Sequence record: MN850645.1
Reading direction: 5' to 3' (one strand)
DNA from: Escherichia phage outra
DNA length: 64,000 bases
In this document: in pieces, positions 38,743 to 57,270 of the stretch
Numbering within the stretch: the first letter of the stretch is position 1
How the letters are laid out: each line of letters starts with the position of its first letter
Made by a program: the position numbers and the translations under genes
Notes under the pieces: generated by a model
Seen by the model: the letters and a program-made list of their open reading frames with translations, nothing else
Told to the model about the DNA's origin: nothing
Database searches by the model: none

Positions 38743-39252
38743 TTAGCGATAGAATTGATGTTCTTTGTAGCGGTACACTAGAACCATATCTTTTTCCCAG
38801 TGTGCTCTTATTGTAGATTTTTTAAAGTATAATGCTCCTTTTGTAATATCTAATGCAATTCGTAATTCTGGAAAATGCGTATCGAGATAAAGTAGACGTT
38901 CTGCTATAGTCTTAGCTTCCTTCCACTTATCACGTTCCATAACGTTGAATGTCTTTGTGTAAGAGAATTGTCCTTTTTGAAACAAAACTTCTTTTATAGT
39001 ATCAGGGAAATATGAATCTCTAGCCCTATTCAATACTACATTACCAACAGCAGACATACCTCGCTTTCCTTGATTACGACTTTCTGCATAGATTGCACAA
39101 GCTAATAGATTTTCTTTACTATCACGCTTTGTACACTTGTGAACTACTTTAGCAGTTTTTACGTTTGCAGCTTCGGCTTGCGCCACAACAGGTGTAAATG
39201 TAAAAGCAGTTAAGGATAGTAACGCAATTGCGACAAAGGTTTTTATTGACAA
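38743..39252 (-). CDS. secreted cell-wall hydrolase, SleB / Hydrolase_2-like
   Basis: N-terminal signal peptide (FVAIALLSLTAFTFTPVVAQA); core CAIYAESRNQGKRGMSAVGNVVLNRA resembles the SleB-type hydrolase signature; TTG start after TAGGAGG. Confidence 0.55.
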   Translation of the reverse strand: MSIKTFVAIALLSLTAFTFTPVVAQAEAANVKTAKVVHKCTKRDSKENLLACAIYAESRNQGKRGMSAVGNVVLNRARDSYFPDTIKEVLFQKGQFSYTKTFNVMERDKWKEAKTIAERLLYLDTHFPELRIALDITKGALYFKKSTIRAHWEKDMVLVYRYKEHQFYR

Positions 39253-39315
39253 ACTTGCCTCCTATTTTGTTAAACGAACTTTTATTGTAACACAGAAGAG
39301 GCTGTTTTGCAAGTG

Positions 39316-39334
39316 GAGGGGGATTATCCCCCTC
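39316..39334 (-). terminator. GC-rich hairpin (GAGGGGG-ATAAT-CCCCCTC); weak terminator or processing site
   Basis: Perfect 7 bp G/C stem between minus-strand genes; no clear U-tract. Confidence 0.35.
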
Positions 39335-39344
39335 TTACACCCTG

Positions 39345-39947
39345 TTAGATGTTGTAAACCTTTGTATGAGTTACTACACCATCTTCTACAAAATCAATAC
39401 GTTCTTGATCCGTAACTAGTGCAGACAATACTTTAAATTTAATTGTTACACGTTCAAAAGCTGGTTGACCATCTTTAAGATAATTATGTTCAGTTGTTAC
39501 TGTCTTGTTTACAAAATCAACTTTTGCTTTACCGTTTTCACGCAAGTGGAATGTTTTTCCTGCTTTATACACAATTTCAACATTACCTTCGAGAGTAATT
39601 CCTTCAAAAAGTTCACCCTCTTCTTCATTTTCTTCACTTTTGAACAGACGACGAAACTCTTCCATATCAAGATAAACAACATCTTCAGAATAACTATCAG
39701 TAAGGTATGTCTTACCATCCATTAACCCGAAATATTGCCAGATCGCAGAATAAACATCACTAGTTGATCCAAGGGTTTCTCTGAGTTTAGTTCCACGGAT
39801 TACTTCATAAACTTCAAAATTGAAACCAGACTGCAAAGCATTAAACAGTACATCACTAACTTCTAAAGCATAATCTTCATTGTTGTCAATATCCACAAGA
39901 AAATTACCGCTGCGAATAAGTTTTTGACCTTCTAAAGTAATACCCAT
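39345..39947 (-). CDS. hypothetical protein
   Basis: 200 aa acidic ORF; GAGGAGA 5 nt upstream; preceded by the terminator of terD. Confidence 0.4.
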   Translation of the reverse strand: MGITLEGQKLIRSGNFLVDIDNNEDYALEVSDVLFNALQSGFNFEVYEVIRGTKLRETLGSTSDVYSAIWQYFGLMDGKTYLTDSYSEDVVYLDMEEFRRLFKSEENEEEGELFEGITLEGNVEIVYKAGKTFHLRENGKAKVDFVNKTVTTEHNYLKDGQPAFERVTIKFKVLSALVTDQERIDFVEDGVVTHTKVYNI

Positions 39948-39960
39948 TGTTTTCTCCTCT

Positions 39961-39990
39961 TCTATTTAAAATATGCGCCCCGAAGGGCGC
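39961..39990 (-). terminator. rho-independent terminator after terD
   Basis: Hairpin GCGCCC-TTCG-GGGCGC followed on the minus strand by ATATTTTAAAT. Confidence 0.6.
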
Positions 39991-39999
39991 TATGATTTA

Positions 40000-40596
40000 T
40001 TACTCGAACCAATCGTCGCCAGCGCCAAACGCTTTAACTACATCATAAATGTCAAGTCCAGCTTTACCTACACCATATGCTTTCAGTTTCCATTCGCTAT
40101 CTTCCCGCACCAGGGAGGCAACGTGGCAAATGGTATTACCTGCAAGTTCTGGAGCCAAGAAGTCAAAATCCAGCAGTTCAACGTTACGTTCATCATCGAA
40201 GATTTTAAGGAAACCTTCGGTAGCGTGACCAAGGCGTTTCTTACCCGTTTCGTCATCAATAGTGATTACGAATGCAATTTCCTGTGCTTCAGCAGAGATA
40301 TTATCCAGTGTAACATCAATCTGCTCCATTTGTCCTACACCGTCACGAACATCTTCACCTGCAAAAGTAGAACGTTCAGGATCAAATTTCTGTGCGTAGC
40401 ATACCAGGTGGCGAGGAGACAACAGTTCCGGCAGACCAGATGCATTGTGTCGGCAAATCAGAGCACTAACATCCAGATCCAGTTTTTCGTTAGATTTCCA
40501 AGAGAATTCCAGACGAATGCGTTTCAGTGCTGGTGCAATCTTTTTCAGAGAAACTTTTTCGCTAGAACCTTTTTTCAGGGAAATTTTCTGAGTCAT
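40000..40596 (-). CDS. terD: TerD-domain protein (tellurite resistance / stress protein family)
   Basis: 198 aa; alignable by eye along its length to bacterial TerD (KISLKKGSSEKVSLKK / DLDVSALI / GEDVRDGVGQMEQIDVTLDNI / SEWKLKAYGVGKAGL), including the Ca-binding-type acidic motifs; RBS AAAGGAGA. Confidence 0.8.
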   Translation of the reverse strand: MTQKISLKKGSSEKVSLKKIAPALKRIRLEFSWKSNEKLDLDVSALICRHNASGLPELLSPRHLVCYAQKFDPERSTFAGEDVRDGVGQMEQIDVTLDNISAEAQEIAFVITIDDETGKKRLGHATEGFLKIFDDERNVELLDFDFLAPELAGNTICHVASLVREDSEWKLKAYGVGKAGLDIYDVVKAFGAGDDWFE

Positions 40597-40633
40597 AATT
40601 TATTATCTCCTTTGTTGTTAATTTACGTTGTCT

Positions 40634-40661
40634 ATTTTACTAATCTTTTCTACAAAGTCAA
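40634..40661 (-). promoter_or_regulatory. sigma70-like promoter upstream of terD (TTGACT-16 nt-TAAAAT)
   Basis: On the minus strand, -35 TTGACT (40661-40656) and -10 TAAAAT (40639-40634), about 35 nt upstream of the terD start. Confidence 0.5.
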
Positions 40662-40668
40662 GCGTTTT

Positions 40669-41463
40669 TTACGCTTTTGCTCCAAATTTTTTAACCCACT
40701 CGCCAAACTCTTCGGATAGCAGTTTATCGTAAAGTTCTTCGTCAGACAAGGACAAATCTGCAATACCGATAAAATCAACGTTATCGTATTCTTTTGCCAA
40801 GTCTTTCAGGAATTTAAAGTTTGCATTACCTACACCAACCATAAACCAGTAAACAGGAGTGTTGCGGTGTTTGTTCAGCAAACTACGTACTGCTGAAGTA
40901 TCCATGTTCTCCCCGTCAGTTTGGAAGAAAATCATTGCAGGAGTACGATCAACTTGTGCATCAGTATCTACAACCTGTTCTACAACAGTACGTGTAACTT
41001 CTACACGTTCTTTTTTACCAGTTAGTTTAGCAAGGAAACCCTTAGCCGGAACTTCTTCATACTCAACGACTTCGCGTGTAATATTTTTCATAGGTACACT
41101 ACCGAAGTATGTATCATAGATCTCTTGCATTACTGGAGCATAAGCTGTACCACCATTGATGCAAACATTAGACATACAAGAGCCGACATAATCATCATAT
41201 ACATCAGCCGTTGCAGGAGGCAGTTCAAAAGAAGAACTATTGAAAGCCCACATGTCAATCTGTGCATTATCATCAAACTTCATACCAAACGGCAGTAGCT
41301 TACCTACAAAATCACTAACAGTGCCATCACGATACAGCTCACACATACTACCCGAAATATCTAAGGCGCTACCGACACGAAGAACAACATCGTTAATCTT
41401 TTTCTTACGCAGAGATACGGTAAGAGTTTCTTGACGTTTTTTAAGACTGATTTTATTGGACAT
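40669..41463 (-). CDS. vWA-domain protein (TerY-like)
   Basis: 264 aa; MIDAS motif DISGSM near the N-terminus and later FQTDGEN; basic N-terminal KISLKKRQ; adjacent to terD and telA. Confidence 0.55.
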   Translation of the reverse strand: MSNKISLKKRQETLTVSLRKKKINDVVLRVGSALDISGSMCELYRDGTVSDFVGKLLPFGMKFDDNAQIDMWAFNSSSFELPPATADVYDDYVGSCMSNVCINGGTAYAPVMQEIYDTYFGSVPMKNITREVVEYEEVPAKGFLAKLTGKKERVEVTRTVVEQVVDTDAQVDRTPAMIFFQTDGENMDTSAVRSLLNKHRNTPVYWFMVGVGNANFKFLKDLAKEYDNVDFIGIADLSLSDEELYDKLLSEEFGEWVKKFGAKA

Positions 41464-41464
41464 A

Positions 41465-41734
41465 TTATTTCTCCTTTCTGAGTGTAATGTTAGTAACTTC
41501 TAAATCCACTTCTACCATTTCTGTATCATACGAAATACAGCTAAGTTGACCTCTTTGCGAACCGTTCAGACACATTGCTTGGTTTGTATTAACTTTAATA
41601 AACACTAAGTTTCTGAACGTATCTAAACCAGAATCTTGATAGGCAACATAATATACAAATGTATCACCTACGTCAAGTTCTCCAAAACATTTAGGTTCAT
41701 CTGATTTGTCGTCTTTGATATTAAATTTAAGCAC
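41465..41734 (-). CDS. hypothetical protein (GTG start)
   Basis: 89 aa; GTG at 41734 after AAGGAGGAG; overlaps the upstream gene by 8 nt. Confidence 0.35.
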   Translation of the reverse strand: MLKFNIKDDKSDEPKCFGELDVGDTFVYYVAYQDSGLDTFRNLVFIKVNTNQAMCLNGSQRGQLSCISYDTEMVEVDLEVTNITLRKEK

Positions 41735-42290
41735 TATCTCCTCCTTTACCTACTTTCCAACCTAAATAGAAAGCCTCTCTAGTGATTTTTTGCAACTCGT
41801 TTAAAGAGATAGTTACAACTAAATCATCTTCAATTTCTAGCTTTGAGTCTTCTTCTGTCTCAATGCAAGTATTATGCACTTTGTGGTAAGGATTGTCAAC
41901 ACGTTTAAATTTATTATTTTCAGTGTTGAAGAAGCAATCTGGATCTTCTTCTCCATCACCCCAACCCTGGTTAGGATCTTCTTCAGATCTTTCTGTTGGG
42001 ATCTCACCTGTAAAGTGCTCTTCTAATACCAGAGCAATCCCATCTCCAAGATCGGAAGAGAACATCAAATTACAAACTTCTTCCCAAGGCATAGACCACT
42101 TAAATCTTTTACGATTGCCATGTTTATCTTCTTCGTTAGAGAAAACACTACCATAGCTATCATAATTCCCATACATCTCTTCGACAACCTTACCACCTTT
42201 CAAAAGAAATAGGTAGCAAGGAGAGCCATCAAAAGAGGTAGAAAGAGCAGCATTACCAGACTCTTTGCACAAGAAACTAAAACACCCCAT
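41727..42290 (-). CDS. hypothetical acidic protein
   Basis: 187 aa; start coupled to the upstream stop. Confidence 0.4.
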   Translation of the reverse strand: MGCFSFLCKESGNAALSTSFDGSPCYLFLLKGGKVVEEMYGNYDSYGSVFSNEEDKHGNRKRFKWSMPWEEVCNLMFSSDLGDGIALVLEEHFTGEIPTERSEEDPNQGWGDGEEDPDCFFNTENNKFKRVDNPYHKVHNTCIETEEDSKLEIEDDLVVTISLNELQKITREAFYLGWKVGKGGDSA

Positions 42291-42490
42291 TATACACCAG
42301 CCTTAAGATCAATTAAAGCCAAAGTTGTTTCAGAGTGTGTTTGCTCGTCTACAGGTGCAGTCATATGATAATACAAAAAATCTTCGGCATCATACCAATC
42401 TGATTCTTGACCTTGTTTCCAACCATCAATGAAAGCATCTTCCATAATGGTTTGCAATTCTTCACGAGTTAAGTGAATATCTTTACTCAT
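42290..42490 (-). CDS. hypothetical small protein
   Basis: 66 aa; translationally coupled on both sides. Confidence 0.4.
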   Translation of the reverse strand: MSKDIHLTREELQTIMEDAFIDGWKQGQESDWYDAEDFLYYHMTAPVDEQTHSETTLALIDLKAGV

Positions 42491-42696
42491 TACACATTCT
42501 CCTCTTTTACCAATTCCATCGTTGAATTGTCAAAACCATCTTTAGAAGAATAGGTATAGACAGAACGTAGTTCTCGCAGGACAGTGAATACATTAGGATC
42601 ATCTAACCAAGCATCCTGGAGGAGAACATAACGATCTTCATTATCATACTGAACAGCAATCATAGAACCAGACAGTTTGTAAATTTTAATATTCAT
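42490..42696 (-). CDS. hypothetical small protein (start revised)
   Basis: The ATG at 42696 has AAGGAGA 8 nt upstream and lies after the telA stop; the track start at 42723 is a GTG inside that RBS. Confidence 0.4.
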   Translation of the reverse strand: MNIKIYKLSGSMIAVQYDNEDRYVLLQDAWLDDPNVFTVLRELRSVYTYSSKDGFDNSTMELVKEENV

Positions 42697-42709
42697 AATA
42701 TATTTCTCC

Positions 42710-43813
42710 TTAAAGTAGACCACGTTTAACAGTTTGAATCATACCATCTTCAAGAGATTGCACTTCTTGAATGTAATCAATACGAGCAGCACGGGCTTCA
42801 GTGTTGATTCGGTTAGTTTCTTCCAACATTTTAACCAAGTTTTCTTGATCACGACGTAATGTTTCAATATCCAATACTTGACGATTAGCAAGTTGTGTAG
42901 CTTCAATTTGGTTTTGTGCAGCCAAATCACTACCCATTGCAATCGCAGCATTAAATTCATTTAGTACATTGTTCTGTGTATCGGCTGCTTTCTTCTGGCG
43001 TAGACTTTCAATATACATAGAAAAGTTTGCAGAGTAAGCAGGGATAACATTATTCACAATATTACGGGCTGATCGCATCAAACTTGCAGATACTTTCTGC
43101 ATACTTTGTACACGTGGCCCCATCTGAACACATAGTAAGCGTAAGGCTTTCAGGTCTGCAATACGAATTTCAAGCAGATCCATAGTATCACGAGTACGTT
43201 GACGCTCTTCTACCTCATTTTCAGGCAGTGTATTAAGGCGAATTTCTTCTTTTTCATAAGTAGCTGTTAGAAGCTCTATATCCCTGTTTAAACTAAGGGC
43301 ATATTTTGCAATAGCCTCTTCTAAACGTTGCAGATATCGTAAAGAATCTTCTTCTTTTTTCAAGTCTGTTTGGAGTGTCTTTACCAAACCTTCAATACGG
43401 TTATTGATGGTGTCAAATTCTCCAAACAAATCTTCTTTCATACCTAAAACTTTCTTAACTAGTTTACCTAAACCTTTAGATTGTTTAATAGAGTTAGGAT
43501 CAAGTTGCTTTGCTTGCTTAATAAGCGCAGTTAAACGTTCACTCATTTCATCTCCCTGAGATGAACGCTGGTGTTTAAGCACTTCAGCATTAAGGTTACG
43601 AAGAGTAAGTCCTGCATCAGCACCAACCTGTTCAATCTCTTCACGAGACATTGGAGGCAGCATTTGTACAGGTCGTGCAACAGCAGGGGCATATACAGGA
43701 CTTGCATCCATAGCAGTTGGAGCAAACAAAGACTTACTTTTTTCTGTTGTTGCCGTGAATACACTCATTTCAGACGGTTTGCTTTTTACGGCACTGATAA
43801 AAGGACTGGACAT
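42710..43813 (-). CDS. telA: TelA-like toxic-anion-resistance protein
   Basis: 367 aa, predominantly helical coiled-coil with the size and architecture of TelA/KlaB/YaaN-family proteins; GGAGGAAA RBS; flanked by terD/vWA and terC. Confidence 0.5.
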   Translation of the reverse strand: MSSPFISAVKSKPSEMSVFTATTEKSKSLFAPTAMDASPVYAPAVARPVQMLPPMSREEIEQVGADAGLTLRNLNAEVLKHQRSSQGDEMSERLTALIKQAKQLDPNSIKQSKGLGKLVKKVLGMKEDLFGEFDTINNRIEGLVKTLQTDLKKEEDSLRYLQRLEEAIAKYALSLNRDIELLTATYEKEEIRLNTLPENEVEERQRTRDTMDLLEIRIADLKALRLLCVQMGPRVQSMQKVSASLMRSARNIVNNVIPAYSANFSMYIESLRQKKAADTQNNVLNEFNAAIAMGSDLAAQNQIEATQLANRQVLDIETLRRDQENLVKMLEETNRINTEARAARIDYIQEVQSLEDGMIQTVKRGLL

Positions 43814-43861
43814 TCAATTTCCTCCATATTCTTTAGTAGATGGTGATACTTCTATACCACC

Positions 43862-43889
43862 ATCATAACACAAGTTAAGTATTAAACAA
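43862..43889 (-). promoter_or_regulatory. candidate sigma70-like promoter upstream of telA (TTGTTT-16 nt-TATGAT)
   Basis: -35 at 43889-43884 and -10 at 43867-43862 on the minus strand, about 45 nt upstream of the telA ATG. Confidence 0.35.
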
Positions 43890-44733
43890 ACATATCTAAA
43901 TAATTTGTAGTAATAAATGCTCCATCTGCTTCCAGATTAACATAACCCGTGGTATTAGCAGTTAAGAAATCCAGATCGAAGGACTCTTTAACACCCCGTA
44001 CCTCAACACGAGAGATATCGAATACAGGTAGTGTAACAGCCTCTTCGTGCAATACCGTACCTTTGTAGGTTGCCTTAATGATAAACTTGATATTACCCGT
44101 TCCAGCATCATACAAAACACTTTCAAACCCTTTGAGAGTATATTTATCACCAGAAGTGAAGTGCAAAGTTGCTTTGTTTACAGTACGTTTTTTACGAGGA
44201 GTTCCTTTCACACGTTTATGATCACTACGTTTTTTGTATTTAGGAATGAATACAAACGATACACTCTCAAGAAAGGTATCAACATCAAGGATTTTAATAT
44301 CCTCTGTTGCAGCAAATTTTGAAGTCGTTGCATCAAAATGCTTTTCCCTGCGATCATACATAAAGATATCAAACCGATCTTCTAAATCAAACAAATTATG
44401 TATTTTAATTTCAGAATGCTTGCGCATTGCAGCAACCTTGAACTCTTCAAAACGTGGGTGTTCTACAAGTTCTTCAAGTTTTACACCAAAGACAGTATAT
44501 TGCTTCGAAGTCTTTTCTGGTGTTGGCATTACAGAAGCATAATCACCGATTGCGCTCTTAAAGCAAAATTGTTCTTGACCTGTATTTTTACCAACGAATT
44601 TACAGTATTCGTCATTGTGCATACTTTCCTTGGTAGTACCAACAAACTCAAAACCATCTTTATTCTTCTCAAGAATTTCTTGATTAAAGATCCAACCTTC
44701 CAGGCGATACACTTTACCAACTTCTAGTTTCAT
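43882..44733 (-). CDS. hypothetical protein
   Basis: 283 aa; AAGGAGA 5 nt upstream; no motif recognised. Confidence 0.4.
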   Translation of the reverse strand: MKLEVGKVYRLEGWIFNQEILEKNKDGFEFVGTTKESMHNDEYCKFVGKNTGQEQFCFKSAIGDYASVMPTPEKTSKQYTVFGVKLEELVEHPRFEEFKVAAMRKHSEIKIHNLFDLEDRFDIFMYDRREKHFDATTSKFAATEDIKILDVDTFLESVSFVFIPKYKKRSDHKRVKGTPRKKRTVNKATLHFTSGDKYTLKGFESVLYDAGTGNIKFIIKATYKGTVLHEEAVTLPVFDISRVEVRGVKESFDLDFLTANTTGYVNLEADGAFITTNYLDMFV

Positions 44734-44768
44734 CTGTTTCTCCTTCTTATTTAATCTGTATTAAATTA

Positions 44769-45359
44769 TTAACGACGACGTGAGCTACTAAAACTACGTT
44801 TCGACGAAGAATAACTTTTCGAAGACTTACTATAAGAGCTAATAGGACTTGAGTAAGACTTACGAGCAGAGTAATCACTATTCACTTTTGTTGTTGATGG
44901 GCGTGAATACGTTTGTACACTTTGCTGCTTAATTGTGTTTTGTTTAGTGGTTGTATATGTATTCCCTTGTTTATCATAAAACCTATGCTTTTGTGTTGTA
45001 TATGCTTTACTATTAGTTGTAGGAGCAGCGTTGTTATTGATAATTGTTGTATTGCTACCGCCATCTCTATAACCACCACCGCCACTATTACCACTCAACA
45101 TATGACCAAGAAGCATACCTGTAGCAAACTCACCTACGCCAGAAGAACCACTGCCGCCTCCTTGCACAACAACTGTTGAAGGTTGTGCAGGTGCTGCTTG
45201 AACAACTTGAGGTGCAGGCTGATTTACATATTGTTCATCTACCATCTGATTTGGTGTTTGTTGGTAACGTTGATTTTGTACATTTTCAGAATCATCACAA
45301 CCTACCAGCAATGCACTACCTAAAACAACTGCAACAATAAAAGATTTAATGTTTTTCAT
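44769..45359 (-). CDS. lipoprotein with glycine-zipper motif and Ser/Tyr/Lys-rich basic C-terminus
   Basis: Start revised to the ATG at 45359 (GAGAGGG 7 nt upstream); signal peptide with lipobox LLVGC; GGGSGSSGVGEFATGMLLGHMLSGNSGGGG resembles glycine-zipper outer-membrane lipoproteins. Confidence 0.5.
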   Translation of the reverse strand: MKNIKSFIVAVVLGSALLVGCDDSENVQNQRYQQTPNQMVDEQYVNQPAPQVVQAAPAQPSTVVVQGGGSGSSGVGEFATGMLLGHMLSGNSGGGGYRDGGSNTTIINNNAAPTTNSKAYTTQKHRFYDKQGNTYTTTKQNTIKQQSVQTYSRPSTTKVNSDYSARKSYSSPISSYSKSSKSYSSSKRSFSSSRRR

Positions 45360-45552
45360 TTGTAACCCTCTCATTTAAAATCTCAACACAATTTTTAAAA
45401 TCCCTAGAGAAACAATACATCTGTTCTCCGTTCCTGTTGATAGTAATTGTATGGTTATCAATATATGTTGTCAAGATAAAAATCAAACAAAACAAACCTA
45501 GAGCAAAACAAATATTTTCAAACAGAATCCAAAGAACACGTAAAACCACCAT
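45346..45552 (-). CDS. small membrane protein
   Basis: 68 aa; one strongly hydrophobic N-terminal helix; GAGGTG RBS just downstream of the terC terminator. Confidence 0.35.
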   Translation of the reverse strand: MVVLRVLWILFENICFALGLFCLIFILTTYIDNHTITINRNGEQMYCFSRDFKNCVEILNERVTNEKH

Positions 45553-45561
45553 CAGATCACC

Positions 45562-45583
45562 TCAATAAAGCCCCCGAAGGGGC
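45562..45583 (-). terminator. rho-independent terminator after terC
   Basis: Hairpin GCCCC-TTCG-GGGGC followed on the minus strand by TTTATTG. Confidence 0.55.
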
Positions 45584-45591
45584 TTAATGAA

Positions 45592-46569
45592 TTAAGCAAC
45601 AGCCTGGTCTTCTTTTTCAGGGAAGATTAAACTTGCAAGAACACCCAGCCCAAGAGTACCTAACACAATATACATACTGATCGTCGGGTCAATGTGTGCT
45701 GGCAGGAAACTCACTTTTGCGTGCAGAGTTTCTGCAAACGGGTGATACATCAGTTTTACACCCACAAACACCAGGACTACGATAACTGCTTTCTCCAGAT
45801 GAACCAAATACTTCAGTGCAACACTAAGAACAAAGAACAGAGCACGTAAACCTAAGATTGCACAGAGCATCGAAGAGAACACCAGCAGAGGTTCTTGTGT
45901 CACTGCAATTACTGCTGGAACAGAGTCTACTGCAAAGATTACGTCAACCATTTCCATTACAAACACACAAACCAGAGCCGGAGTTGCTACACGAACACCA
46001 TTTTTGATTGTGAAGAACTTCTCACCATCCATCTGATCAGATACAGGGAACAGCTTACGAACAATGCGAGTAGCCCAGTGTTTAGAGTAATCAACTTCTG
46101 CATCATTATCTCCAGCGAATACCATTTTAGCCGCACAGAAAAGGATGACAGCACCGAAGAAGATATTAACATACCAGCCCAAACTCAACAAGTAAGTACC
46201 TACTGCTACAAACACACCTCGGAAGACAATCGCACCTGCAATACCCCAAAGTAGAATCTTGTGCTGCAAGTGTGTGCTTTTAATACCAAAACTTGCGAAT
46301 ACTGCTACAAATACTACTAAGTTATCTACAGAAAGAGATTTCTCCAACACATACCCACTCAAGAACAAGCTCGCAAAATCAGCACCGTGTTGGAAGTATA
46401 CAAAACCATAGTAGGCTAATGATACCCCAATCCAGAAAATTGACCAGCCAATTGCAGATTTAAATGAAATTTCTTTGTTTTCTCTGTGTCCAAAGAAGTC
46501 AATACAAATCGACAAGACTAAAATACCCACTAAAACAACCACATCAATAATTGGGAAACCCAGTTGCAT
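45592..46569 (-). CDS. terC: TerC-family integral membrane protein
   Basis: 325 aa; multiple TM helices; EKSLSVDNLVVFVAVF matches the TerC-family signature; RBS AAAGAGGAG. Confidence 0.75.
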   Translation of the reverse strand: MQLGFPIIDVVVLVGILVLSICIDFFGHRENKEISFKSAIGWSIFWIGVSLAYYGFVYFQHGADFASLFLSGYVLEKSLSVDNLVVFVAVFASFGIKSTHLQHKILLWGIAGAIVFRGVFVAVGTYLLSLGWYVNIFFGAVILFCAAKMVFAGDNDAEVDYSKHWATRIVRKLFPVSDQMDGEKFFTIKNGVRVATPALVCVFVMEMVDVIFAVDSVPAVIAVTQEPLLVFSSMLCAILGLRALFFVLSVALKYLVHLEKAVIVVLVFVGVKLMYHPFAETLHAKVSFLPAHIDPTISMYIVLGTLGLGVLASLIFPEKEDQAVA

Positions 46570-46587
46570 TCTTTTCTCCTCTTTAAT

Positions 46588-46606
46588 GCGGAGGACAATC
46601 CTCCGC
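46588..46606 (-). promoter_or_regulatory. stem-loop in the terC 5' leader (GCGGAGG-ATTGT-CCTCCGC)
   Basis: Perfect 7 bp G/C stem between a predicted promoter and the terC RBS; no U-tract. Confidence 0.4.
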
Positions 46607-46618
46607 TCTATGTCTTAT

Positions 46619-46646
46619 ACTATAAACTGTTTTTAAAGAAAGTCAA
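46619..46646 (-). promoter_or_regulatory. sigma70-like promoter upstream of terC (TTGACT-16 nt-TATAGT)
   Basis: -35 at 46646-46641 and -10 at 46624-46619 on the minus strand. Confidence 0.45.
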
Positions 46647-46895
46647 CTAGTTCAGTTCTGTAATTTTAAGTTTATCTTCTTTGTTAATGACAGGGAAAGC
46701 TACAGCATCACCTACGTCATCAATAAAGCAAATAGCAAGACCACCTTCCACTTTGCTGATTTGACCATTAAAGGCGTGATACGGGGCAGGAACTTGATCT
46801 CCATCTTCAAGGAGAATAGCCTCGTAAACCTTGCCGATAGTACAATCACGAGTGTTTCTAAATTTTTCAAGCACTTCAACATTTACTTTACGCAT
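46647..46895 (-). CDS. hypothetical protein
   Basis: 82 aa; GAGAGGA 8 nt upstream. Confidence 0.4.
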   Translation of the reverse strand: MRKVNVEVLEKFRNTRDCTIGKVYEAILLEDGDQVPAPYHAFNGQISKVEGGLAICFIDDVGDAVAFPVINKEDKLKITELN

Positions 46896-46909
46896 ATAAA
46901 AATCCTCTC

Positions 46910-47116
46910 TTATTTGTTAGATTGAAAGATACCACGAAGTACCGCAAGAATGAACGTCACACAGACTACACTCCAAAACGTTACAGGAACATGATGCCAG
47001 TCTAAGCCGATAATGTCAATCATATAGTTGTATGCTAAAAGCAGTAGCCAACTAGGGATTAACACAATCAAAAACACAACAATAAAACAACCTAATACTG
47101 CTAAAACACCTGCCAT
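46910..47116 (-). CDS. small membrane protein (two TM helices)
   Basis: 68 aa; AAGGAGA 5 nt upstream; two hydrophobic helices. Confidence 0.45.
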   Translation of the reverse strand: MAGVLAVLGCFIVVFLIVLIPSWLLLLAYNYMIDIIGLDWHHVPVTFWSVVCVTFILAVLRGIFQSNK

Positions 47117-47125
47117 ACTTTCTCC

Positions 47126-47842
47126 TTATTTCAGTTTGTAAACAATTACATTTAAACCTTTGTTTACTAGAGTTTCTTCGATCATAAGTTTTACAATACT
47201 CCAAGAACCTCCAGCCAAACCACAACCAAGCATTGGTAAACCTACAATTTTACCGCCTGAAGATACAACATCGTCTCCCATACTATCTAACGCATTGTAG
47301 ATAGCTTCATAATTCAGGTCACGCTTACCTTCCTCACGACGACTATAACCATATTGTCCATATAAATTATAAATTGTCAAATTGTTTTCTATATATTTGG
47401 TAAACGTACCTAATTTTTTATAATCACCATGTTTAGTGGCACAATCTGCTTTAAACGCACCAGGCCACTTGCTTTTAATTTTTGGTGCAATACCACTACC
47501 CATAGTGCAAAAACAGTTACAGCAGTGTGCTATAGCGTCTATATCGCCTCTCTCGGCTGCTGCTAAAAGATCACCGTATACCTCAATGATACCTGCCGGA
47601 TAACTTGTTACAATTTCATCTTCCCAATACATTTTCTCTACACCACCGATCAGTGCAAAGTTTTGTGTAATGCGATCATCAATATAGTTAAGACCTGAAA
47701 CATACACAGCATATTCATCCTGTGCTGTAATACCTTGTACACGAATTCTTAAGACACCATCTTTATCTGTTGCTACACGCCCAAAATCTTTTTCTGTAAT
47801 ATTGGTGATAGGATCTCCGAAAGTCATTACTTTATTAGACAT
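47126..47842 (-). CDS. macrodomain protein, TARG1/DarG-type ADP-ribosyl hydrolase candidate, with extra N-terminal domain
   Basis: C-terminal ~150 aa match TARG1-type macrodomains (GDLL...AIAHCCNCFCTMGSGIAPKIKSKWP ... LGCGLAGGSWSIVKLMIEE ... VIVYKL). Start revised to the ATG at 47842 (AAAGGGG 6 nt upstream, overlapping the upstream stop). Confidence 0.7.
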   Translation of the reverse strand: MSNKVMTFGDPITNITEKDFGRVATDKDGVLRIRVQGITAQDEYAVYVSGLNYIDDRITQNFALIGGVEKMYWEDEIVTSYPAGIIEVYGDLLAAAERGDIDAIAHCCNCFCTMGSGIAPKIKSKWPGAFKADCATKHGDYKKLGTFTKYIENNLTIYNLYGQYGYSRREEGKRDLNYEAIYNALDSMGDDVVSSGGKIVGLPMLGCGLAGGSWSIVKLMIEETLVNKGLNVIVYKLK

Positions 47843-48692
47843 AATAATCCCCTTTAACATTAGATTTGTTGATAATGTTGCTTTCAAAAAATTGACGTAG
47901 GAAATCAAAGTTCTCTTTATATTTTTCAATGTTATTGTAGCCTTCTGCAAGGCAACCAAAGAACAGTTGTTCTACATAATACAAAGGAAGCTGTGAAAGT
48001 GCAATTTTAAAATCAACTTCGCTTTGACTCATTAGATACTTAATAGGACGAACCAAACATTTAGCATCAGTTTCTTGTTTAATCATTTTAATAAAAGCTG
48101 CCAGGTTATTGATATAGTTGAAGTTAAGTGCAGCTTCGGTATTGGCTTCTGTACCTTCATACTTTGCAAAGTACAGGAAAAACGTATCGTTTTCAACACC
48201 TTCTTTGTCTAAAATTTCAATAAGTTTTTCTTCGTGCGTTCCTGTAATATTAACATCATCAATGAAAATCAGAGTTTTATTACCCCAGAAATCACGATTG
48301 ATAGAGAAAGTGTCACCATCGATCAAAGCCTTACGATCTTCTTTGCTAAGAAATCCATAATCATTGATATAGCTCACTTTACGATGAACGATATCCCACT
48401 CCACTGCTTTACCTCCTTTGATAGAGATTAGGTAGTTGAGGTGATCTACAAAATGTTCAGATAACACTGTAGCTGCATTTTTCACATAGTTATATGGAGA
48501 TGGAATAACAACAAAACTTTCATTTACCAGTCGTTCTTCATACTTGGAAAAGAAACTTTCAGCCAGAATGCGCCCCATTCTTTTTGCTGCCTGGTTACTA
48601 CCAAACTTTAGCTTGGAATAATCTGCAATGTTAAATTTTGCTTCCTTCAGGTTAGTAAAAGTATTAGCAAAATGTTGAATTTGATTACGCAT
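47835..48692 (-). CDS. phosphoribosyltransferase (PRTase type I fold) protein with C-terminal extension
   Basis: 285 aa; PRPP-binding-loop-like motif LIFIDDVNITGTHE; AAGAGGAA RBS; start overlaps the HAD gene by 8 nt. Confidence 0.55.
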   Translation of the reverse strand: MRNQIQHFANTFTNLKEAKFNIADYSKLKFGSNQAAKRMGRILAESFFSKYEERLVNESFVVIPSPYNYVKNAATVLSEHFVDHLNYLISIKGGKAVEWDIVHRKVSYINDYGFLSKEDRKALIDGDTFSINRDFWGNKTLIFIDDVNITGTHEEKLIEILDKEGVENDTFFLYFAKYEGTEANTEAALNFNYINNLAAFIKMIKQETDAKCLVRPIKYLMSQSEVDFKIALSQLPLYYVEQLFFGCLAEGYNNIEKYKENFDFLRQFFESNIINKSNVKGDYYV

Positions 48693-55533: not shown

Positions 55534-57270
55534 TTAGTTTACCAGTTTATTTATATCTGGTAAAAGATTTATTTCACCTAAGAAATCACCTTCACCTTCC
55601 TCTAGCCAACTCTCATATGCTTGTGCATGATTATAGTTACCATCAAAAGAATCTGCAACAAATTTTTCTACAGTTTTTCGAGATGTGCCAGCGCCAAATA
55701 CACCAAGTTTAATACCATTGATCGGTAAAGTGGTACTTGTGGGTACTTTCTCTGTTGCAACACGGTTGATATCTATAATCTCCTGTACGGTTGTGTTCCA
55801 TTGTAAGCATTTAACACAACGGGTATGCGCTACATACAGTAGGTTTCGCTCTGCCTCTTCCAGTCCTACCCATTCACCAGTCTTTTTATCATAGTTGGAA
55901 GGAAAATCATTAGCAACAATAACCTGATCCCACTCCAAACCTTTAGACTTGTGTGCTGTAGTCAGTGTGACTTTTGCTGTAGGAGAATTTCTATGCGTTC
56001 TAAGTGTATGTGCTATAGTGTTTGCCTTACCAGAAACTACGATGTTTAACAAGCGTTTAGCATCTGGATCAGCCTCTGCACACTCAACAAATTCATCCCA
56101 GTCTGCGTAAGGTAATACAGTTTCATGTTTTACTTTCTCAATATCTCCTCTCCGAAGAGCATTAACACTATCTACCATAGAGATAAAATCCCTGGTATCT
56201 ACGTTAATAATAATTTCTTCCCCATCTGCAATACGATCCATTGCCTCCATAAGCAAGGTTAAATTCTTGCGAAAGATGATAGTGTAAGGTTTTGTATAGT
56301 CTACAACATCTGATTTGTAGCTACCTACTACAGTATCAAAACCTTTACCAACCAAAGGATGACGCAAAGGTTCTTTATCGCTTAAAATCATATTGGCAAT
56401 GTTTGCCACTTTGGGGCCAAAACGGAAGCAAGCAGTTAATGGAAGCTCTGCCCCATATGTAGAGGTTTCCTTCATCATATTTTGGCTTCCACGGAACTGG
56501 TAGATGCTCTGATATTCGTCACCCACCACTACTACTTGTTTTGCAGATTTAGCATTTCGCAGAATAGACAAGAATGCAGGGTTAACATCCTGGAATTCAT
56601 CACCAAAAATAATATCATAACCAAGATCAGCACCAGATAATTCAAACAATTTTACATAGGTGTCATGCGTCATCAAAGTATCTGTGTTAGGATCGATGCG
56701 CTCTCGCCACAATTGTTTTGCATACTTAACTACTTCTGTAATTAGTTTGTGTTCGTTAATACCTTTTCTTTTAATATCTGCAAGATGTACACTAGGAAAA
56801 TGTTTACGGCTGATAAAAGGATCATCCGAAAATTCAAACTTACCTACGGTTTGCTTGATCATTAAACCGATCATAGCACGAGTTAAAAGTGTTTTCCCTC
56901 GTTTATCAATAAGATTATTAATCTTAAATTTCTTTGCTATCTCACTACCTGTACCTGCAACGTTAACATACTGTCCTTCTGGTCGTGACAGTTTTGCACG
57001 TAAACGATGATCCAGGAATTGATAGCAAATAGAATGCAATGTACGGCATTCTACATTTAGTGGCATCTTACGTCGTGCTTCTTCTGCCATGCTTTTATTG
57101 AAAGCTAAGTAAAGAATGCGATCTTCTGTACTGTTAGCCAGCAAATAAAGTGTTGACGTTTTGCCTGATCCAGATTTAGCTTGGATAGTTAAAAAGCGAT
57201 GGTCTGGAAAAGCCTCCTTAATAGCTGTCTGCTCTTCTGTTGGAGTGAAGCTCAACTCTTTCTTAGCCAT
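55534..57270 (-). CDS. superfamily 1 DNA helicase (UvrD/Rep-like)
   Basis: Walker A AKSGSGKT, motif II FGDEFQDV, motif III VVGDEYQSIYQFRG; start revised to the ATG at 57270 (GAGAGG upstream); the track start is 57309. Confidence 0.75.
   Translation of the reverse strand: MAKKELSFTPTEEQTAIKEAFPDHRFLTIQAKSGSGKTSTLYLLANSTEDRILYLAFNKSMAEEARRKMPLNVECRTLHSICYQFLDHRLRAKLSRPEGQYVNVAGTGSEIAKKFKINNLIDKRGKTLLTRAMIGLMIKQTVGKFEFSDDPFISRKHFPSVHLADIKRKGINEHKLITEVVKYAKQLWRERIDPNTDTLMTHDTYVKLFELSGADLGYDIIFGDEFQDVNPAFLSILRNAKSAKQVVVVGDEYQSIYQFRGSQNMMKETSTYGAELPLTACFRFGPKVANIANMILSDKEPLRHPLVGKGFDTVVGSYKSDVVDYTKPYTIIFRKNLTLLMEAMDRIADGEEIIINVDTRDFISMVDSVNALRRGDIEKVKHETVLPYADWDEFVECAEADPDAKRLLNIVVSGKANTIAHTLRTHRNSPTAKVTLTTAHKSKGLEWDQVIVANDFPSNYDKKTGEWVGLEEAERNLLYVAHTRCVKCLQWNTTVQEIIDINRVATEKVPTSTTLPINGIKLGVFGAGTSRKTVEKFVADSFDGNYNHAQAYESWLEEGEGDFLGEINLLPDINKLVN

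Follow-up and report, generated by a model that had tools for sequence, protein, structure and literature searches.

Genes gp180 and gp181 and their products

This analysis concerns two overlapping genes of Escherichia phage outra, gp180 and gp181, in a stretch of 64,000 nucleotides (MN850645.1) that is hereafter called the window. They are situated between terC and telA, in a part of the window where all of the genes are on the minus strand (Table 1), and are named after phi92 genes: in phage Paula, which is 99% identical here, the pair is annotated as homologs of Phi92_gp180 and Phi92_gp181, both "hypothetical protein". The surrounding 3 kilobases (kb) are 100% identical to those of Escherichia phage vB_EcoM_ESCO8 and 98–99% identical to those of about 50 further genomes of Justusliebigvirus, the phi92-like phages of the Stephanstirmvirinae. 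Both open reading frames (ORFs) are real genes: their products are conserved well beyond chance in PHROG searches, and diverged homologs at 42–60% identity retain the same motifs. No paper mentioning gp180, gp181 or the gp180 lipoprotein family was found; the family is previously undescribed, being new to the literature and to the domain databases, yet it falls within the familiar category of phage accessory lipoproteins.

Gp180 begins with MKNIKSFIVAVVLGSALLVGC, a lipobox pattern of the PROSITE PS51257 type, by which a candidate Lgt/LspA/Lnt substrate is recognised, i.e. a basic n-region, an uncharged h-region and [LVI][ASTVI][GAS]C, with the cysteine (here Cys21) at position 15–35. The same pattern is present in all 20 aligned homologs (21/21 with gp180) and the phi92 record carries a SignalP note on gp180, so that the lipobox (LLVGC) assigned to this 196-residue product in the original prediction, a reading of the bare DNA letters, holds. 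It is the sole credible lipoprotein gene in the 64 kb window. In Escherichia coli an aspartate at position +2 of the mature lipoprotein is a Lol-avoidance signal, strengthened by Asp, Glu, Asn or Gln at +3, and a lipoprotein so marked stays in the inner membrane. Among the close homologs of gp180 Asp is found at +2 in 21 of 21 and at +3 in 20 of 21, and because of this conserved pair gp180 is expected to remain in the inner membrane, on its periplasmic side. The suggestion that such a lipoprotein blocks the phage's own receptor did not fare well, since the conserved Cys-Asp-Asp predicts a location away from outer-membrane and surface receptors. Receptor masking by gp180 is unlikely: the outer membrane should be out of its reach, and several surface glycans are recognised by phi92-like phages (PMC11984140).

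The mature protein can be divided into an acidic linker, a short conserved core and a polycationic tail (Table 1). The helix of the core, GVGEFATGMLLGHMLSG, contains G81xxxG85xxxS89 and His86, and within the core alignment G74, G76, G81, G85, S89, T105 and N108 are invariant. A glycine zipper, reportedly described by Kim et al. in 2005, is (G/A/S)xxxGxxxG or GxxxGxxx(G/S/T) in a membrane-active helix. Where the original prediction placed a glycine-zipper segment, G81xxxG85xxxS89 occurs in a hydrophobic, Gly-rich stretch; the strict GxxxGxxxG is absent from gp180, although about half of its relatives do have it, and the Gly-zipper models of Pfam did not match gp180. With a 19-residue hydropathy maximum of 0.64 the core has neither the length nor the hydrophobicity needed to span a bilayer. 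The only 19-residue hydrophobic peak of gp180 is the signal peptide, and there is no C-terminal transmembrane (TM) segment. The Ser/Tyr/Lys-rich tail that had been described was recovered as well, its composition being 26% Ser, 14% Thr, 12% Lys, 9% Tyr and 8% Arg. An AlphaFold2 model based on a 21-sequence alignment had a mean predicted local distance difference test score (pLDDT) of 45, the core containing a helix of just 4 residues and RFYDKQGNTY forming a small hairpin; mature gp180 is predicted to be mostly disordered. Scans of gp180 and gp181 against Pfam, NCBIfam and PADLOC gave sub-threshold compositional or signal-peptide matches alone (YjbE, DUF2076, Lpp, entericidin and DUF6693), and a sequence search of the PDB returned signal-peptide matches plus SlyB (E-value=0.064).

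Gp181 possesses one strongly hydrophobic stretch (Kyte-Doolittle 19-residue mean of 2.5 at residues 9–27), after which follow about 38 residues without a coiled coil. In seven sequences C15, F16, G19, L27 and T28 of the membrane segment are invariant, as are G42, C47, F48 and C55 of the C-terminal domain. The conservation of a cysteine pair in the latter suggests that this 38-residue domain may face the periplasm (N-in/C-out) and be disulfide-bonded. Homologs of gp181 were seen solely beside the lipoprotein gene in Stephanstirmvirinae-like contigs; a word-indexed search with the protein gave 3 clusters only, and its sole library match, to DUF6693, was sub-threshold (21.7 bits; cut-off 31). The overlap between the lipoprotein gene and that of a 68-residue membrane protein, also part of the original prediction, amounts to 14 nucleotides in the window and likewise in loci L004, L011 and L015, and to 59 nucleotides in phage ESCO5.

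A putative sigma-70-type promoter lies inside the gp181 ORF. Its motif, TTGACA-N17-TAnnnT, is invariant and in the same position in five lineages (the window, L004, L007, L011 and L015), the gp181 proteins of the other four being 41–49% identical to that of the window. Since the motif is invariant while the synonymous sites near it, and even the amino acids encoded at the -10 element, differ between lineages, the comparison argues for selection at the DNA level and for a regulatory signal that would constrain the coding sequence. Gp180 can probably be transcribed alone by the host RNA polymerase, besides any read-through from terC and gp181. The hairpin that follows terC belongs to the minimum-free-energy fold; this fold is not significantly stable in comparison with shuffled sequences (z = -1.0), and the hairpin is without the U-run of a canonical terminator.

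Table 1. Features of the gp180–gp181 locus and its surroundings (window coordinates, unless another locus is named)
Feature	Position	Strand	Details
gp180	44769-45359	minus	196 amino acids plus stop, starts MKNIK; phrog_21570, E 8e-123
gp181	45346-45552	minus	68 amino acids; ORF list; phrog_17591, E 2e-44
Overlap of gp181 end and gp180 start	45346..45359	minus	14 nucleotides; ORF list
Signal peptide with lipobox L-V-G-C	45297..45359	minus	gp180 residues 1-21; Cys21 is the predicted lipidated N-terminus
Asp22-Asp23	45291..45296	minus	mature positions +2/+3; candidate Lol-avoidance signal
Acidic Gln/Pro/Val-rich linker	45168..45296	minus	residues 22-64, net charge -4; ends in conserved V-V-V-Q strand-like motif (composition, conservation)
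Conserved core	45030..45167	minus	residues 65-110: Gly-rich loop, helix, Gly-rich loop, TTIINNN (alignment)
Polycationic tail	44772..45029	minus	residues 111-196, net charge +15, ends RRR (composition)
Putative sigma-70-type promoter TTGACA-17-TACAAT	45446..45474	minus	inside gp181 ORF; 11/12 match; 115 nucleotides upstream of gp180 start
Shine-Dalgarno GAGAGGG	45366..45372	minus	6 nucleotides upstream of gp180 ATG; GAGG core invariant in five lineages
Hairpin AAGCCCC-UUCG-GGGGCUU	45568..45585	minus	C(UUCG)G tetraloop; between terC stop and gp181 ribosome-binding site
terC	45592-46569	minus	PF03741, E 1e-38; context, outside the gp181/gp180 unit
Promoter-like site of terC's own	46646-46619	minus	promoter scan
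82 amino acid protein		minus	between 68 amino acid TM protein and terC
68 amino acid TM protein	46910-47116	minus
Macro-domain protein	47126-47842	minus
PRTase_3	47835-48692	minus
gp179	43882-44733	minus
telA	42710-43813	minus	several small genes then come before vWA-TerF-like
vWA-TerF-like	40669-41463	minus
TerD	40000-40596	minus
gp171		minus	between TerD and Hydrolase_2 gene
Hydrolase_2 cell-wall hydrolase	38743-39252	minus
Embedded Rz1 o-spanin, temperate relatives	L016 752-1345; L023 2210-2810		+1 frame of Rz (…LAGCSTTRTVYVPAQCPALSPTLTAPVLVPLPPAP); three-frame translation

A dispersed lipoprotein family and its contexts

A word-indexed search with gp180 retrieved 29 clusters, the longer contigs among them being 140–155 kb in length and phage-like. 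Synteny revealed the same gene pair between terC and telA of the Phapecoctavirus genomes ESCO5 and REC, in which the lipoprotein has 145 residues (hhalign E-value=1e-26). Tblastn with gp180 found Justusliebigvirus only, missing this ortholog probably through low-complexity masking, and tblastn with the family member of Pantoea found nothing in isolate phages. A profile restricted to the core (64 positions, without signal peptide or tail) was searched against 1.84 billion cluster representatives, 89 of which were matched at E≤1e-3. Nearly all of the matching proteins have 110–270 residues and a single layout, consisting of lipobox, Gln/Pro linker, PVIVQQ, (H)DSGxGDFATGMxLGHMxSGG, TTVVNKT and a Ser/Arg tail ending in RRR. 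A strict lipobox was present in 54 of the 60 profile matches examined and the PROSITE-type pattern in 101 of 108 family proteins, while at least two of the last three residues are basic in 102 of these 108 (52 end in RRR). Since neither the lipobox nor the basic C-terminus was part of the profile, they corroborate the homology independently. Family proteins have a median net charge of -3 in the part preceding the core and of +10 in the part following it, and His86 and the Met residues of the core are replaced in many relatives. No Pfam family covers the members; the scattered weak matches among 60 of them (SARAF in 3, DUF1190 in 2, Gly-zipper_Omp in 1) look compositional.

At least 3 family loci were found in a scan of one genome per species (185,579 species), a lower bound because the scan was pattern-limited, and 12 were found in IMG/VR. 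Where a source is named, the members are "hypothetical protein" of Robbsia, Pantoea, Enterobacter or Burkholderia; in the three neighbourhoods examined, those of Pantoea, Robbsia and Burkholderia, the gene lies in a prophage-like region.

The genes adjoining the family members vary from lineage to lineage. In Stephanstirmvirinae-like contigs the lipoprotein gene is found between terC and telA, and in L002, the most distant relative with a Ter context, some 7 kb separate it from telA and the 16.6 kb locus contains no terC. Seven temperate-phage loci carry the gene on the same strand and some 20 nucleotides after a lysis cassette of holin, SAR (signal-anchor-release)/Phage_lysozyme endolysin and Rz. 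The Rz genes of these temperate relatives hold a classical embedded Rz1 in the +1 frame (…LAGCSTTRTVYVPAQCP…PLPPAP), and because Rz1 is embedded in Rz the family lipoprotein of these phages is an extra gene and not the o-spanin. In the Pantoea prophage, the one case examined, no promoter-like site was found ahead of the gene. Prophages of Burkholderia and Robbsia have it in a replication module, between genes for a DnaB-like helicase and a DNA ligase, and some contigs have it in an amidoligase cluster of the phiEco32 type (Peptidase_C26, COOH-NH2_lig, Amidoligase_2, GATase_6/7, RimK). Two further loci are arrays of small unknown genes.

Most of the family contigs are without Ter genes in the 5–6 kb flanks examined, and two Ter-carrying phages, Yersinia P778 and Cronobacter vB_CsaP_009, have no such lipoprotein. 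As had been noted, terC is the neighbour directly upstream of gp181. Because the contexts of the family vary between lineages, however, this association is lineage-specific and is not evidence of a Ter component, and the adjacency can no longer be taken as a sign of Ter function. Such varied contexts are typical of an autonomous accessory gene.

The members encoded by two metagenomic contigs, L029 and L010, are short (116–118 residues) and lie inside amidoligase clusters. This placement parallels ygiB-ygiC and yjfM-yjfC of E. coli, in which the gene of a DUF1190 lipoprotein stands beside that of an ATP-grasp ligase. By eye, YgiB and YjfM, the partners of the ligases YgiC and YjfC, show the same order of elements as gp180: a lipobox, a hydrophobic Met/Gly motif (FWMPLMAGYMMGRLMGGG in YgiB, FATGMLLGHMLSGNSGGGG in gp180) and a Ser/Thr/Gly/Arg-rich tail, and some members of the gp180 family are next to amidoligase genes, as ygiB and yjfM are next to their ligase genes. 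DUF1190 differs in its Cys-rich N-terminal domain, which gp180 does not possess. Homology to DUF1190 was rejected as unproven after profile comparison in four ways, hhalign aligning the signal peptide only, or else the motif at 6.6% probability; the Pfam model PF06693/DUF1190 did not match gp180, and matched 2 of 60 relatives at an E-value of 2e-4, below the standard applied to the family. The invariant basic C-terminus of the family might conceivably be a ligase substrate.

A protein of similar appearance is gp025 of Cronobacter phage GAP52, an unrelated podovirus (L009 8438-8986). This lipoprotein of 182 residues has a gp180-like layout, with FLLGC-DDN, a Pro/Val/Gln linker, a Gly/Ala zipper and a Lys/Ser/Thr/Tyr tail ending in KKRK, and its gene is located two genes after the endolysin and beside a Ter cluster. 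Homology to gp180 was not demonstrable, and the likeness could be due to convergence or to a homology too distant to detect.

The surrounding Ter-type cluster

Nucleotides 38743 to 48692 of the minus strand specify a complete phage-borne Ter-type cluster, comprising Hydrolase_2, TerD, vWA-TerF-like, TelA, TerC, macro-domain and PRTase_3/ComF-like proteins. In it the membrane components and the stress components of bacterial Ter systems are combined with the PRTase, the macro domain and the hydrolase; beyond it lies a HAD-like hydrolase, according to the annotation of Paula. Subsets of the ter genes (terC, terD, terF-vWA and telA) have been reported in several virulent phages (PMC9796965, PMC8386662). 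Their role in phage infection is described as unknown (PMC9796965) and possible anti-viral functions have been suggested (PMC8386662), while an older observation cited in both papers is that the ter cluster of R478 causes phage inhibition and colicin resistance (PMC9796965, PMC8386662).

The Hydrolase_2 enzyme, a homolog of Phi92_gp170, is SleB-like (PF07486, E-value=7.5e-20) and begins with a cleavable Sec signal peptide (MSIKTFVAIALLSLTAFTFTPVVAQA, cleaved before EA). Its export would need no holin, and one may ask how the wall is then spared premature damage. The macro-domain protein, a homolog of Phi92_gp185, is annotated as "putative phosphatase" and matched the DarG antitoxin model of PADLOC (E-value=4e-13); it could counter DNA ADP-ribosylation of the DarT type or be part of a Ter-linked nucleotide chemistry. 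The hydrophobic 68-residue protein encoded at 46910-47116 (MAGVLAVLGCFIVVFLIVLIPSWLLLLAYNY…) is conserved, with its gene ahead of terC, in every Stephanstirmvirinae-like locus seen (L004, L007, L014, L015, L018 and L020) and has only a very weak resemblance to PspB (E-value=0.33). Out of frame within terC is a 38-residue ORF with a lipobox-like start (45987-46103, minus strand; MQKLITLNTGLLALFVSC…), most likely a chance ORF. Finally, four GenBank records labelled as Campylobacter phages A150, A145, C3 and B15 with Campylobacter jejuni as the host (MG065639, MG065645, MG065656 and MG065650) encode a gp180 98% identical, or a TerC 72–99% identical, to those of the phi92-like or phAPEC8-like phages of E. 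coli, and the host label appears questionable.

Possible roles of gp180 and its family

The reading that we prefer, though only tentatively, is that gp180 may be an envelope-protective accessory which acts after adsorption and either hinders the entry of the genomes of superinfecting phages or stabilises the inner membrane and the wall. An autonomous accessory tethered to the inner membrane is suggested by the lipobox, Asp at +2 in the enterobacterial phages, the predicted disorder, the polarity of charge, the conserved short helix, the occurrence in phages, prophages and metagenomes, the shifting contexts and, in phi92-like phages, an early-type promoter motif of the gene's own. The original prediction of an envelope-directed accessory module is in keeping with this, as the cluster also encodes TerC, the 68-residue TM protein upstream of it and the Sec-exported SleB-like hydrolase.

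With regard to gp180 and gp181 we infer lipidation, localisation, topology, timing and a protective function as follows. Gp180 would be made early, probably by the host RNA polymerase from the conserved sigma-70 promoter inside gp181; Sec would export it, lipidation would take place at Cys21, and Asp-Asp at +2/+3 would keep it on the periplasmic face of the inner membrane. There the core helix would probably serve in self-association or in interfacial binding to the membrane, and the polycationic tail could bind anionic components of the envelope such as peptidoglycan or phospholipid head groups. The protein would work autonomously on the host envelope, without a conserved partner.

Llp of phage T5, Cor of phi80 and N15 and Ltp of TP-J34 are, like gp180, small phage lipoproteins that are expressed apart from the structural genes, and they act on the envelope, as gp180 would. 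Ltp of the Streptococcus phage TP-J34 is anchored to the cytoplasmic membrane at its outer face and prevents the entry of DNA rather than adsorption, and an anchor at this face is what it shares with gp180 as predicted. Llp and Cor, in contrast, are folded and act at the outer-membrane receptor FhuA, whereas gp180 is predicted to be disordered and to stay in the inner membrane. The bacterial lipoproteins SlyB/Pcp and OsmB are likewise small and have a hydrophobic segment of the small-xxx-small (GxxxG) type after the lipid anchor. SlyB is linked to protection from envelope stress and is the sole solved structure that the family profile matched beyond the signal peptide. These similarities are below significance (SlyB at E 0.064; Gly-zipper_Omp in 1 of 60 members, E 0.005), so that a SlyB/OsmB-type identity of gp180 is not demonstrable. 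SlyB and OsmB reside in the outer membrane and possess two zipper helices, a folded domain or both; in gp180 there is a single short helix together with Asp at +2 and a long polycationic tail, and no folded domain.

Several observations speak against an inner-membrane protective factor. The ortholog in Phapecoctavirus has Glu at +2 (Cys-Glu-Asp, not Cys-Asp-Asp), and across the wider family Asp is found at +2 in only 55 of 101 proteins; retention in the inner membrane is consequently no family-wide rule, and the sorting rules for lipoproteins differ outside the Enterobacterales. No characterised exclusion protein similar to gp180 was found in Pfam, NCBIfam, PHROGs, PADLOC or the PDB, the PHROGs being families of unknown function only. 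Alignments of the family are, owing to the low-complexity composition, unreliable outside the core. Lastly, temperate phages of the P21-like kind carry the gene in the late lysis transcript without a promoter of its own, as in the Pantoea prophage.

This last arrangement accords better with a role in lysis control than with exclusion; such a role, the chief alternative, we consider rather unlikely for gp180. Anchored in the inner membrane and facing the periplasm, the protein would modulate the final stage of infection: it would restrain or release an endolysin exported by Sec (with a signal peptide or as a SAR protein), or tune a pinholin or spanin, and in this way set the timing of lysis. 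The position after holin, endolysin and Rz with its embedded Rz1 in seven temperate loci is what such a function would lead one to expect; a Hydrolase_2 enzyme is near the gene both in the phi92 cluster and in the distant relative L002, that of the window has a cleavable signal peptide, and the look-alike of GAP52 follows an endolysin at a distance of two genes. In phi92-like phages, however, the gene is 5.5 kb from the hydrolase gene and about 56 kb from the curated spanin genes (phi92 coordinates) and has a putative sigma-70 promoter of the early type, and other members occur in replication or metabolic modules without lysis genes nearby. Moreover, lambdoid phages classically carry unrelated accessory genes, for example bor of lambda, just behind Rz. 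The family member of the P21-like relatives fills this very slot, directly after Rz/Rz1, where lambdoid phages have bor. The bor gene is divergently oriented, has its own promoter and specifies an outer-membrane product without homology to the gp180 family, whereas the family genes run in the same direction as the lysis genes and showed no promoter in the single case inspected.

Considerably less probable is that gp181, gp180 and TerC form an inner-membrane complex which handles a metal or metabolite exported by TerC, through Asp, His and Met residues of the core, or signals the state of the envelope to TelA or TerD. The order terC, gp181, gp180 and, further on, telA is kept in both genera of the Stephanstirmvirinae and in their metagenomic relatives, the core has conserved Asp/Glu77, His86 and Met82/87, and a lipoprotein laid out in the same way is encoded close to the Ter genes of GAP52. 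Against this, gp180 and gp181 gave no match to a Ter family (TerB, TerC, TerD/Z/E/F, TelA, vWA-TerF/TerY), while their neighbours match TerC, TelA, TerD and vWA-TerF-like strongly; most family members are on contigs without Ter genes, the gene of L002 is far from telA in a locus without terC, P778 and vB_CsaP_009 have Ter genes without such a lipoprotein, many relatives carry other residues in place of His86 and Met82/87, and the homology of the GAP52 protein is not demonstrable. A dedicated partnership with TerC is conceivable for the phi92-like lineage only, and is improbable even there.

The overlap of a TM-protein gene with a lipoprotein gene recalls the "overlapped" architecture of spanin genes, but a spanin, be it gp181 with gp180 as two components of the Rz/Rz1 type or gp180 as a unimolecular one of the T1 gp11 type (N-terminal lipobox plus C-terminal TM segment), is highly improbable and effectively refuted by the temperate relatives, which have an embedded Rz1 in addition to the family lipoprotein, and by the i- and o-spanin genes curated for phi92 at 55669-56336 (Kongari et al. 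2018; PMC6139136), far from gp180/gp181 at 112274-112759 of the phi92 genome; furthermore, the periplasmic part of gp181 has only about 38 residues and no coiled coil, where an i-spanin would have a long coiled-coil domain, and gp180, with Asp at +2, is predicted not to be targeted to the outer membrane and has no C-terminal TM segment.

A bolder proposal concerns the whole family, and we regard it as a long shot. Its members may be a new class of effectors that span the periplasm with a topology opposite to that of known spanins: anchored by lipid in the inner membrane, they would have a disordered spacer whose 175 residues suffice to cross the periplasm, a self-associating small-xxx-small helix and a polycationic RRR tail holding on to peptidoglycan or to the outer membrane at its inner leaflet. 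If true, they would tether or coat the layers of the envelope, blocking incoming genomes or holding the envelope until programmed lysis, and this would explain why the gene is present both in early host-takeover regions and at the ends of lysis cassettes.

Lipoproteins are among the few accessory genes of phages with proven roles, in exclusion, serum resistance and lysis, and the characterised ones are folded and, in Gram-negative hosts, exert their effect at the outer membrane. The family described here is new and widespread, comprising about 90 clusters at 50% identity, and its design differs: an anchor predicted to lie in the inner membrane, a chain disordered almost throughout, a single conserved short helix and a polycationic tail. 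The analysis also removes the tempting but wrong inference that gp180 belongs to the Ter clusters of phages. If the family excludes superinfecting phages at genome entry, or controls lysis, it would be a compact means of studying the periplasmic step of infection and would be relevant to the design of phage cocktails, since phages of the phi92-like and phAPEC8-like kinds are applied against pathogenic E. coli.

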